Positions 47,871-50,334 of a DNA stretch of 64,000 bases are shown one piece after another. The stretch lies in NCBI GenBank assembly GCA_964016885.1, contig OZ024743.1:274226001-274290000 (forward strand), written 5' to 3'. Each line of letters opens with the position of its first letter. Position 1 is the first letter of the stretch. The stretch comes from Eledone cirrhosa. Taxonomy: Eukaryota. The translations under genes were made by a program, and so were the position numbers. The notes below the pieces were generated by a model. That model saw nothing but the letters and a program-made list of their open reading frames with translations, made no database searches and was not told where the DNA came from.

Positions 47871-49051
47871 CACCCACACATACTAGAATAAACACATAGT
47901 AACACACACATATATATATATTCAGACATACACCTATCTATGCATTCACACTCGTACGTCTACATGCTCAGACACCCTTTTTTCTTTTTCTTTTGTGTGT
48001 ATATATCTATATATATGTATACTTATATAAAATATATATATATATATATATATATATATATATATATATATATATATATATATATATATATATATGTGTG
48101 TGTGTGTGTGTGTGTGTAGGTACGTGTGTAGGCAATGTTTATGTACGTATGTGTTCGTATGTGTGTGTGGACATGAGTGAGTTTACGTTTGTGTATATAT
48201 GTGCGTGTATGGATGTATGTGTGTGTGTATATATATGTATATATATACATATAGTTATGTAATGAACAACATAGGATAATTATTTCATTCACCAGTGGTT
48301 TCTTGAAAGCAAACGATATTTACTTTTATTCATGAGAATGAAAAAATCCTAGGTGTGTATATGTATGTGTGTATGTACATGTGCGTATATATGTATGTAT
48401 CTGAATGTATGTGTGTATGTATATATGCGTGTGTATGATCGTGTGTATGAGCGTGTGTATATATATATATTTAAATGTATAGAAGGTTGGCCGTATATGT
48501 GTGTGCGCGCATGTGTATGTATATATGTGTACGTTTGAATATGACATGCTTACCCAATTGATACAGAACAGCCAGAAGGCTCGTGGCGGCATGTATCAAC
48601 AAGTGTGTGTGACTGGGTCTATGGGAGAGGGGGGAGTGGGTGTGTGAGTATATATATAAGTTGAAATAAAATGAAAAGGAAATTTCATTTCACACACTTA
48701 GTACGGCACTTACTTAAATGTAAGTATGTGTGTATACGTACATACATATATGTATACAGACGTACAGTAGCATGCATATATATATATATATATATATATA
48801 TATATATATATATATATATATATATATATATATATATGCATATATATATATATATATATATATATATATATATATATATATATATATATATATACATACA
48901 GGTACACATACATATATGCACGTATTAGTTTAGCGGACGCTTATTATAACTCCGCTTTGCTCGTTTGTAAACAAACTGAACAGCCTGAATTTTTATGCCG
49001 TATGGTGTTAAGGCAACCACGTCACCTTTTTGTTCAACACTGACACAGGAA

Positions 49052-49092
49052 CGATGTACTAGTTTCAAGCTTGTTAGCTATCATCAGCACCG
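49052..49092 (-). ncRNA. Minimal type I hammerhead ribozyme (family A')
   Basis: CGGTG-CTGATGA-tAGCT aaca AGCTt-GAAA-CTAG-TA-CATCG. Confidence 0.87.
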
Positions 49093-49628
49093 TATACCCA
49101 TCTGCCAGATAGTTGAACGTTCGAAAGTATATACTTTCCTTATGAAAATTAACGGCTGAGCAGCCTAATTTGCATATCGAGTGAGCTAAGTCGGTCAGAC
49201 ATACCGAAAATGATAAGTTGAAATAAAATGAAAACGAAATTTCATTTCTCACTCTTAGTACGGCACTTACTTAAATGTAAGTATGTGTGTATACGTACAT
49301 ACATATATGTATACAGACGTACAGTAGCATGCATATATATATATATATATATATATATATATATATATATATATATATATATATATACATACATATATAT
49401 ATATATGTATATATATATATATATATATATATATATATATATATATATATATATATATATACATATATATATATACAGGTACACATACATATATGTACCT
49501 ATCAGTTTAGCGGACGCTTATTATAACGCCGCTTTGTTCGTTTGTAAACAAACTGAACAGCCTGAATTTTTATGCCGTACGGTGTTAAGGCAACCACGTC
49601 ACCTTTTTGTTCAACTCTCACACAGGAA

Positions 49629-49669
49629 CGATGTACTAGTTTCAAGCTTGTTAGCTATCATCAGCACCG
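49629..49669 (-). ncRNA. Minimal type I hammerhead ribozyme (family A', second unit)
   Basis: Identical to 49052-49092, 577 nt away. Confidence 0.87.
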
Positions 49670-50334
49670 TATACCCATCTGCCAGATAGTTGAACGTTCG
49701 AAAGTATATACTTTCCTTATGAAAATTAACGGCTGAGCAGCCTAATTTGCATATCGAGTGAGCTAAGTCGGTCAGGCATACCGAAAACGATAAGTTGAAA
49801 TAAAATGAAAACGAAATTTCATTTCTCACTCTTAGTACGGCACTTACTTAAATGTAAGTATGTGTGTATACGTACATACATATATGTATACAGACGTATA
49901 TATATATATAGACGTATATATATATATATAAGGAAACACGGAAGACACAAAGACAATGTCGTTTCCCGCTCAACGGCTATCTTCTGTGGATCATTATAGT
50001 TTCAAATATATAATGGCTGATTAAAAACCCACGAGCTTTTCTCTTGAAAATTGTATTCCGTTGTTTACTTTTCTTGTCCTCTTCTATCCTGTTTCTTTTA
50101 TTTCCCTATTTGTCATTCAATGAAAGACAAACGTCCGAAACTTTGAGACATTTTTCCTAATATATCAAGCATTAAACTTATACATATCATTATTGCATTG
50201 AATCGATCTCCTCTGTTGTTTTTCCTTGTTGAGTTTTCGCATATATATTTTTTTCCTGTGTGTTTACAGGGTCATACAGCAGAAACTCAACTCCAGAGTA
50301 ACAGGTTTCTGACTCAATTTTAATTAAACCTATA

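Follow-up and report, generated by a model that had tools for sequence, protein, structure and literature searches.

Metazoan non-LTR retrozymes consist of tandem non-coding ribozyme units, which have been argued to derive from the pseudo-long terminal repeats (pLTRs) of Penelope-like elements (PLEs) (PMC7229834; bioRxiv 10.64898/2026.07.22.740005; PMC4209133). The layout of PLEs combines partial tandems with a partner that is inverted and truncated, and a tail may be present (PMC8557442; PMC3846280). In vitro work on an anole PLE found that reverse transcription starts from two internal sites within a stem-loop downstream of the hammerhead, the interval between the sites being the tail (PMC11167929). 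A bias of insertion towards (TA)n has been described for Naiad PLEs and suggested for Neptune (PMC8557442). Here we analyse a stretch of 64,000 nt of the Eledone cirrhosa contig OZ024743.1 (positions 274,226,001 to 274,290,000; hereafter the window), in which a non-coding unit of 420-577 bp, bearing a minimal type I hammerhead ribozyme and arranged in partial tandems, inserts into (TA)n tracts and itself carries a TA run at a fixed internal position. The families of this unit, named A, A′ and B, are probably non-autonomous derivatives of a PLE pLTR, i.e. non-LTR retrozymes mobilized by a PLE. The explanation that we favour as a whole, and regard as the probable one, is that of a PLE-mobilized retrozyme with a TA seed as cargo and with target splitting as the main feedback on TA content.

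Two further groups of mobile elements are relevant for comparison. Microsatellites are seeded by DINE-1/mini-me (PMC2374699), squamate CR1-L3 (PMC6050309) and L1/Alu (PMC3812793) elements, and are targeted by MuTAnT, Micron, TAFT (whose target is TA), Dong, Waldo, Mino, Kibi and Koshi (PMC4486113, PMC3812793). The element described here resembles the former in that a mobile element spreads an internal or terminal proto-microsatellite which later expands, and in DINE-1 a conserved (TA)4 is accompanied by a variable GTCY run (PMC2374699). It resembles the latter in that a chosen simple repeat serves as insertion site and is left on both sides. However, the seeding elements are Helitron-like or LINE/SINE (long and short interspersed nuclear elements), and the available text of these sources does not present them as targeting the motif that they carry, whereas the two motifs are identical here. 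The targeting elements are DNA transposons or APE-type LINEs without hammerheads, for which the same text describes no internal copy of the target. Taken singly, both phenomena are already known, PLEs targeting TA and mobile elements seeding microsatellites; the unusual feature of the present element is that the same motif is both carried and targeted, and sits at the apex of a predicted hairpin that would tolerate changes in length. Microsatellite seeding by mobile elements is reportedly also covered by Wilder and Hollocher in 2001 and by Arkhipova in 2006. No element both targeting and carrying the same motif was found in searches covering the main text of open-licence papers, and the available portion of PMC13282606 contained nothing on families A, A′ and B.

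Copies of the element and their insertion into (TA)n

An anchor motif immediately preceding the internal run has seven exact matches, at positions 2071, 2491, 15388, 48759, 49316, 62949 and 63380, and occurs nowhere else in the window; the seven are spread over four insertions (I1, I2, I4 and I5). Five insertions bear hammerheads, these four and the family B copy, with a ribozyme-less fragment (I3) excluded. The seven 3′ ends map without exception to two fixed points of the element, 60-70 nt apart: four coincide with site 1 or lie no more than ∼5 nt from it, and three are at the distal site 2. I4, the only multi-unit copy of subfamily A (48656-49897), has the minus strand as its sense strand and comprises a 108-nt 5′ partial copy followed head to tail by two consecutive complete units of 577 and 557 bp with identical ribozymes. 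It ends at site 2 within 10 nt of TA (48649-48658), 3 nt of which match the element, and these 10 nt are all the TA in its 3′ flank; its tail of ∼60 nt (48656-48718, minus strand) lies between the two 3′-end sites of the family, and its 5′ flank (49897-49930) consists of two TA runs (14 and 16 nt) with a short junction duplication between them. The other subfamily A copy, I3 (26529-26586, minus strand), is a 55-bp tail-only fragment that ends at site 2 with TA on both sides.

Subfamily A′ is represented by three insertions, all ending at site 1. I1 (2036-2695, minus strand) is made up of a 420-bp unit and a partial unit, with a ribozyme at 2236-2295 and, at 2087 and 2507, internal TA runs that are each 12 nt long; the TA locus 1687-2038 holds its 3′ end. 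At its other end (2686-2704), I1 breaks off inside the core of the ribozyme, where a short stretch of ∼9 nt is inverted, so this 5′ end was not produced by ribozyme cleavage. I2 (15351-15772, minus strand) is an older, single unit with an internal run of 14 nt, a 16-nt deletion in the 5′ arm of the predicted hairpin and a C3-to-U change in the ribozyme core; its 3′ end lies in the TA locus 15151-15352. Its 5′ end, the only A/A′ end far from any TA run, runs straight into a very AT-rich inverted repeat (15765-16088 and 16773-17120; ∼330 bp enclosing 700 bp). I5 (62808-63427, plus strand) contains a partial unit and a 431-bp unit, with a ribozyme at 63163-63222, internal runs of 8 and 14 nt, and TA on both sides; its 5′ end (62808) is situated 2 nt from TA and ∼30 nt beyond the cleavage site. 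Family B is an inverted pair (29095-30036, with ribozymes at 29314-29373 on the minus strand and 29689-29748 on the plus strand) whose homology to A/A′ extends along the unit; its two arms end near site 1 and at site 2, respectively, the site-2 junction being identical in A and B. The A′ copies are 4.5-12% apart, and A differs from A′ by 16-23%. The two I4 units are 2.3% apart outside the tract, the A′ tandem pairs being older (4.5-5.3%).

The layouts, i.e. partial tandems in I1, I4 and I5 and an inverted pair in B, are of the PLE type; the units are tandem rather than bounded by LTRs, with no arrangement of LTR, primer-binding site and polypurine tract, and no Pfam match was obtained for the reading frames inside them (129 open reading frames (ORFs) of at least 55 aa were searched in the window). 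Like metazoan non-LTR retrozymes, the units are non-coding, low in GC and tandem, carry one type I hammerhead each, occur as monomers and partial dimers, and fit a proposed pLTR origin (PMC7229834). They differ in length (420-577 bp versus a quoted 150-450 bp, the excess in three of five units being modest or due to the tract) and in having an (AT)n of variable length inside the unit; the available text of PMC7229834 nowhere uses the word 'microsatellite'. The assignment to retrozymes is made from sequence, cleavage and circular RNA being features of the known systems. With the pLTRs of endonuclease-positive PLEs (PMC4209133, PMC3846280, PMC11167929) the units share a minimal type I ribozyme, a palindromic 2-bp stem III, partial tandems, an inverted 5′-truncated partner, an optional tail and a (here predicted) stem-loop near the 3′ start sites, and the pLTRs of Adineta also contain palindromes and a (TA)4 box. 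Unlike those pLTRs, the present unit comes without an ORF.

Targeting of TA was clear. A perfect TA run of at least 10 nt lies no more than 3 nt from each of the seven 3′ ends, whereas 12.9% of window positions are in, or at most 10 nt from, such a run. The initial annotation had described almost all hammerhead elements as flanked by (TA)n; this holds for every 3′ end, but 5′ ends abut TA in three cases out of five and TA is found on both sides of four of the six insertions. It had also named SINE and LINE copies as the comparison by which the idea should stand or fall. No LINE control is available in the window, but the elements are indeed closer to (TA)n than the copies of a control family that we take, from its B-box and core motif, to be SINE-like (6/6 insertions abutting (TA)n versus 1/8 SINE copies; Fisher p = 0.005); no tRNA gene was found for the head of this SINE. 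The elements and (TA)n could in principle have come together passively, by gathering in tolerant regions, with tract lengths inflated by sequencing or assembly. Perfect TA runs of at least 12 nt do make up 8.4% of the window (5366 nt), and the lengths of long dinucleotide repeats are error-prone in assemblies. Against this, the 3′ ends far exceed the background frequency, the SINE copies of the same window behave differently, the junctions fall at two fixed element positions, and the interruptions of the two longest internal tracts are not the same, so that we consider passive co-location extremely improbable.

The targeting is not peculiar to this element: 25 of 50 interspersed-repeat segments abut TA, as do 19 of the 33 left after removal by hand of nine A/A′ and eight SINE segments; TA targeting is common in the window and does not depend on the cargo. 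At the junctions, a TA-like microhomology of 3-5 nt was observed, unlike in the anole PLE, which shows no homology to the cut DNA where it starts. A substitution breaks the site-1 motif of subfamily A, both insertions of which end at site 2, a hint, from two cases, that pairing helps to choose the start site. As with Naiad, the (TA)n bias hides target-site duplications, and tandem and inverted structures are seen (PMC8557442). Naiads, however, lack canonical hammerheads, which are present here, so the (TA)n target is the only membership feature common to both. For this reason the helper would more likely, by analogy, belong to a clade with a C-terminal endonuclease such as Neptune.

The internal (AT)n tract and TA content

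As the initial annotation had proposed, an internal TA run is found at the homologous position after the anchor in all seven A/A′ units that reach it. Its absence from the consensus, raised then as a possible objection, did not materialize, as each of these units has at least a short tract. The two long tracts of I4 also lie where they had been placed, at 48776-48898 in the first unit (u4a; 123 nt, with perfect runs of 62 and 55 nt) and at 49333-49475 in the second (u4b; 143 nt, with perfect runs of 55, 14, 54 and 13 nt), each at the predicted hairpin apex, and tract length does account for most of the variation among the four complete units (420, 431, 557 and 577 bp), that is, for 130 nt of a range of 157 nt. 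The description of the tract as expanding has to be narrowed: it applies to two of the seven units, both in I4, whereas the longest perfect runs of the five A′ units are 12, 12, 14, 14 and 8 nt. The sequence bordering the short A′ run is retained on both sides of the long A run, with no foreign insert, which means that the same run expanded and no foreign DNA was acquired. Long tracts were thus restricted to I4 (2/2 units versus 0/5 A′ units; p = 0.048, with units that are not independent), though the A′ tandem pairs are older. Because both long units belong to one insertion and are 2.3% apart, they represent one locus and not a series. At the homologous site of family B (within 29095-30036) there is no microsatellite, the longest run being 5 nt.

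The internal run sits 50-60 nt upstream of site 1, and nearly every insertion must therefore copy it. Priming within the internal tract was rejected, as none of the seven 3′ ends falls inside the run. Hence the 4-7-unit TA seed is an obligatory cargo, shown by five of five A′ units in three independent insertions. A slippage threshold of 4-5 units has been quoted for dinucleotides (PMC3812793); the carried seed is at or above it, yet all five A′ seeds are short. As for I4, the simplest reading would be that its template was already expanded when the dimer formed, and the differing interruptions of the two tracts indicate later change in place. The copying step may have gone via RNA or via duplication at the DNA level, and the evidence fits either. 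A DNA-level account of the whole structure, in which the run and its surroundings are a decayed old target site or a captured fold-back duplication, the hairpin has no function in RNA, and the I4 expansion and dimer arose by slippage and unequal exchange, finds some agreement here. It would explain the differing interruptions, and among the three copies of the 108-nt I4 overlap two are identical and the third differs at 3/108 sites, as local duplication or conversion would produce; pLTRs have also been proposed to undergo local tandem amplification (bioRxiv 10.64898/2026.07.22.740005). We nevertheless regard this account as unlikely, on the grounds of base-pairing patterns given further below.

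The initial annotation went further, proposing that an element which both targets and transports (TA)n creates its own future targets and thereby helps to explain the extreme microsatellite load. The first part stood for TA targeting and for carriage of a short seed, but a long tract, the transport of which is hypothetical, is seen at one locus only. The second part found little support in the window: none of the seven carried tracts has been used as a target, a count of low power since only one or two nested insertions would be expected (given the 5.7% internal share and ∼25 TA-abutting segments), and the internal tracts make up 305 of the 5366 nt of perfect TA (5.7%), 6 of 78 TA loci and 2 of 34 long loci, a minor share. 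Accordingly, as regards the features of seeding elements, a proto-microsatellite occurs at a fixed position in 7/7 A/A′ units and not in B, and the share of loci is small (6/78). TA loci touching the ends of A, A′ or B comprise 1804 nt (33.6%) of perfect TA, a figure that cannot be credited to the elements from filled sites alone.

A strong form of the loop, in which the family retrotransposes long (AT)n tracts that become preferred targets and so drive much of the TA load, appears to us improbable. It is in keeping with the seed in every unit, with the targeting of TA, with the two long I4 units (as expected from a long tract in the template), with a predicted fold that a long apex leaves undisturbed, and with seeds of 6-7 units exceeding the 4-5-unit slippage threshold (PMC3812793). 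Yet the long tract is confined to one locus, no internal tract holds an insertion and the anchor is found nowhere else, the internal share of TA and of long loci is small, family B has no tract but possesses flanks of 340-415 nt, more than half of the other repeat segments abut TA too, and the five A′ seeds have stayed at 8-14 nt over 5-12% divergence. The self-feeding loop in its weaker form is possible, with the cargo as a minor, unproven contributor to the TA load.

Splitting of the target tract, followed by regrowth, has better direct evidence than the cargo loop as a source of TA feedback. Family B is bounded on the left by 341 nt of TA (28755-29095) with 11 interruptions and on the right by 415 nt (30035-30449) with 19 interruptions, and all of these are A-to-T changes on the plus strand, whereas 13 other long TA loci contain three such changes altogether. 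The mirror change that would be expected from a palindrome is not seen. The same rare, same-strand interruption in both flanks is evidence that one tract was split in two, each half having regrown and amplified its interrupted unit; this is shown for one insertion and may apply in general. At least six repeat insertions are nested in the region 25477-30449, which includes this copy and is an insertion hotspot; long, interrupted TA tracts of up to 777 nt lie between them, and the cluster fits repeated rounds of splitting. Rare interruptions shared by both flanks are a simple marker of splitting that can be scored across a genome. If the combination of carrying and targeting one motif proved true genome-wide, it would provide a testable route to a very high TA load.

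Hammerhead, predicted hairpin and proposed mechanism

The hammerheads of I4 are located at 49045-49104 (u4a) and 49622-49681 (u4b), both on the minus strand, and are of the minimal type I, with stem I of 6 bp, stem II of 4 bp, a palindromic stem III of 2 bp and, in u4a, a GUA cleavage triplet. Across the copies 97.8% of cells are paired, five pairs show changes on both sides, and the covariation score was reached by none of 500 shuffles (six distinct rows from two related families). The hammerhead model fits every one of the five A/A′ units that span the site, and the two B arms as well. A search of the window with it recovered seven full ribozymes and a truncated one, with no other score above 11 bits; since the model was built from these very copies, the search adds only the truncated eighth copy. 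The ribozyme claim relies on covariation and not on folding energy, as single strands fold no better than shuffles (z from -0.8 to -1.7 for six A/A′/B copies). With relaxed E-values, and among the best 150 of 385 Rfam matches, the only hammerhead obtained was that of family B (HH9, 32.9 bits versus a cut-off of 52), the remainder being miRNA models on simple repeats. Matches to the pattern CUGAnGA...GAAA at 3606, 6808, 17691, 19762, 35672, 54883 and 56801 were rejected, none exceeding 11 bits with the model; three of them were folded, and the folds gave no support.

On the ribozyme strand, a hairpin is predicted that ends ∼10 nt ahead of site 1 and is built from an outer stem of 25 bp, a 3′ bulge of 11 nt and an apical stem with (UA)n at its closed end. 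In u4a its 3′ arm would occupy 48734-48758, its bulge, corresponding to the anchor motif on the sense strand, 48759-48769, and its 5′ arm 48901-48925 (all on the minus strand). The bulge has no variable column in the seven A/A′ units. In the outer stem 147 of 150 cells pair in six units, with 10 distinct G.U versus no A.C mismatches (p = 0.002; the deleted I2 unit, u2, was left out of this count). In whole-unit folds the mean pair probability was 0.94-0.99 in three of four units, whether the apex was long or short, and ribozyme stem II reached 0.96 in both long units. As the apex is self-complementary, added AT units would only lengthen the stem and are predicted to be tolerated; if real, the hairpin would explain why length varies at this one position. 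Family B shows the same predicted fold, in which the apex is not repetitive and one pair is changed on both sides. Taken together, support for the hairpin is moderate, and its existence is likely but unproven.

These patterns also bear on the DNA-level account introduced above. It is favoured by control windows that fold equally well and by a covariation that is not significant. However, neutral decay of a palindrome predicts equal numbers of G.U and A.C, in contrast to the 10 versus 0-1 found on the sense strand; family B, although divergent, retains the arms, the bulge and the apical stem; and the bulge is invariant in every A/A′ unit. Selection for pairing or A-to-I editing would either of them give the G.U bias. 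A strand bias along the whole unit, as RNA editing everywhere would produce, was rejected, as outside the stems 33 A/G and 30 C/T differences were counted. A more elaborate proposal makes the hairpin, capped by the element's own target motif, the initiator of reverse transcription; its self-complementary (UA)n apex would have no upper limit to its growth, and subfamily A would be a runaway whose long tracts are copied via RNA to new loci as landing pads for the same machinery, the G.U excess possibly being an editing footprint; we consider this proposal doubtful.

In the mechanism that we favour, that of a PLE-mobilized retrozyme, a tandem copy would be transcribed, and a (TA)n tract would be nicked by a reverse transcriptase/GIY-YIG protein that a PLE provides in trans. 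Reverse transcription would then start internally, at one of the two fixed sites just 3′ of the purine-pyrimidine hairpin; internal starts are suggested by the two classes of 3′ ends together with the in vitro work on another PLE. The 4-7-unit seed would be copied in nearly every insertion. In the I4 lineage, the seed may have entered fast slippage before or around dimer formation, with each copy changing further in place. The main TA feedback would be splitting, each insertion cutting a tract in two halves that regrow and take further insertions. The hairpin, with its invariant bulge and the two start sites, would then be a candidate cis-element for reverse transcription in a TA-targeting clade of PLEs, should the scheme apply genome-wide.

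A number of observations weigh against this explanation. The analysis covers one 64-kb window, and the splitting evidence comes from a single insertion. No reverse transcriptase or GIY-YIG domain was found among the 129 ORFs of the window, so that the helper is postulated, and the tail, at 60-70 nt, is longer than the 30-40 nt reported for PLEs. No Rfam match in the window reached the gathering level, and in the A/A′ ribozymes U10.1/U11.1 replaces a highly conserved G-C pair, another difference from the known pLTRs, which makes cleavage by them uncertain. Concerning the hairpin, alternating purine-pyrimidine DNA folds in any case, and 4 of 26 unrelated control windows of this kind reached -0.409 kcal/mol/nt or lower, as compared with -0.395 to -0.428 for the elements; its covariation was not above shuffles (175/500, u2 included); with the register slid by 2, 72-81% still pairs (u2 included); the outer stem of the first I1 unit (u1a) was at only 0.5; u2 adds one A.C mismatch and folds better on the antisense strand; and the A/G excess within stems was 7 to 1 (p = 0.07).

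Neighbouring open reading frame and other repeats

An ORF at 53-1420 on the minus strand (455 aa) is separated from I1 by 350 nt of TA. It has 556 relatives, a conserved Trp-rich core and an N-terminal part resembling a coiled coil, and a C-terminal FL motif is found with a restrictive pattern in 48 of the 74 long members of the family (query included). A slippery heptamer, U-UUU-UUA, is present near position 92, and the open -1 frame leaves the window. No Pfam family and no Atlas hit were obtained, only weak coiled-coil matches were seen in PDB, and among longer proteins no fusion of ORF1 with a reverse transcriptase was detected, which is weak evidence. PLEs with a frameshift-separated ORF1 have been noted (PMC8557442). 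The ORF is likely the ORF1 of a frameshifting retroelement, and, judging from these sequence features, an autonomous PLE may have its 5′ end here. A role as the coding partner of I1 was rejected, since I1 has the same end site as I2 and I5, which lack the ORF, and since self-BLAST gave no link; I1 looks like an independent insertion into the TA flank of this ORF. The sole Pfam match among the 129 ORFs was a single C2H2 zinc finger (45189-45359, minus strand; E 2e-5), possibly a host exon or a piece of a pseudogene.

Several other repeats were noted. A palindromic family of 670-730 bp without hammerhead occurs in two copies (30450-31178 and 46710-47381) with TA on both sides; its arms end ∼42 nt apart, in a tail-like manner, and it is possibly a further family of PLEs, or else a fold-back element. 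A second non-hammerhead family is dispersed over 3333-3557, 14579-14930, 19149-19387, 32194-32279, 47433-47673 and 61680-61800, is often folded back, and has a fixed end that abuts (TA)n or (TG)n. Local palindromes at 3536-3616, 3926-4057, 14644-14935, 26212-26445, 35134-35347, 42634-42744, 61639-61724 and 62204-62729 are of a kind typical of inverted 5′-truncated retroelement insertions or fold-back elements. Finally, a GC-rich 169-bp tandem repeat of 2.6 copies, unrelated to the hammerhead families, is located at 51766-52217.

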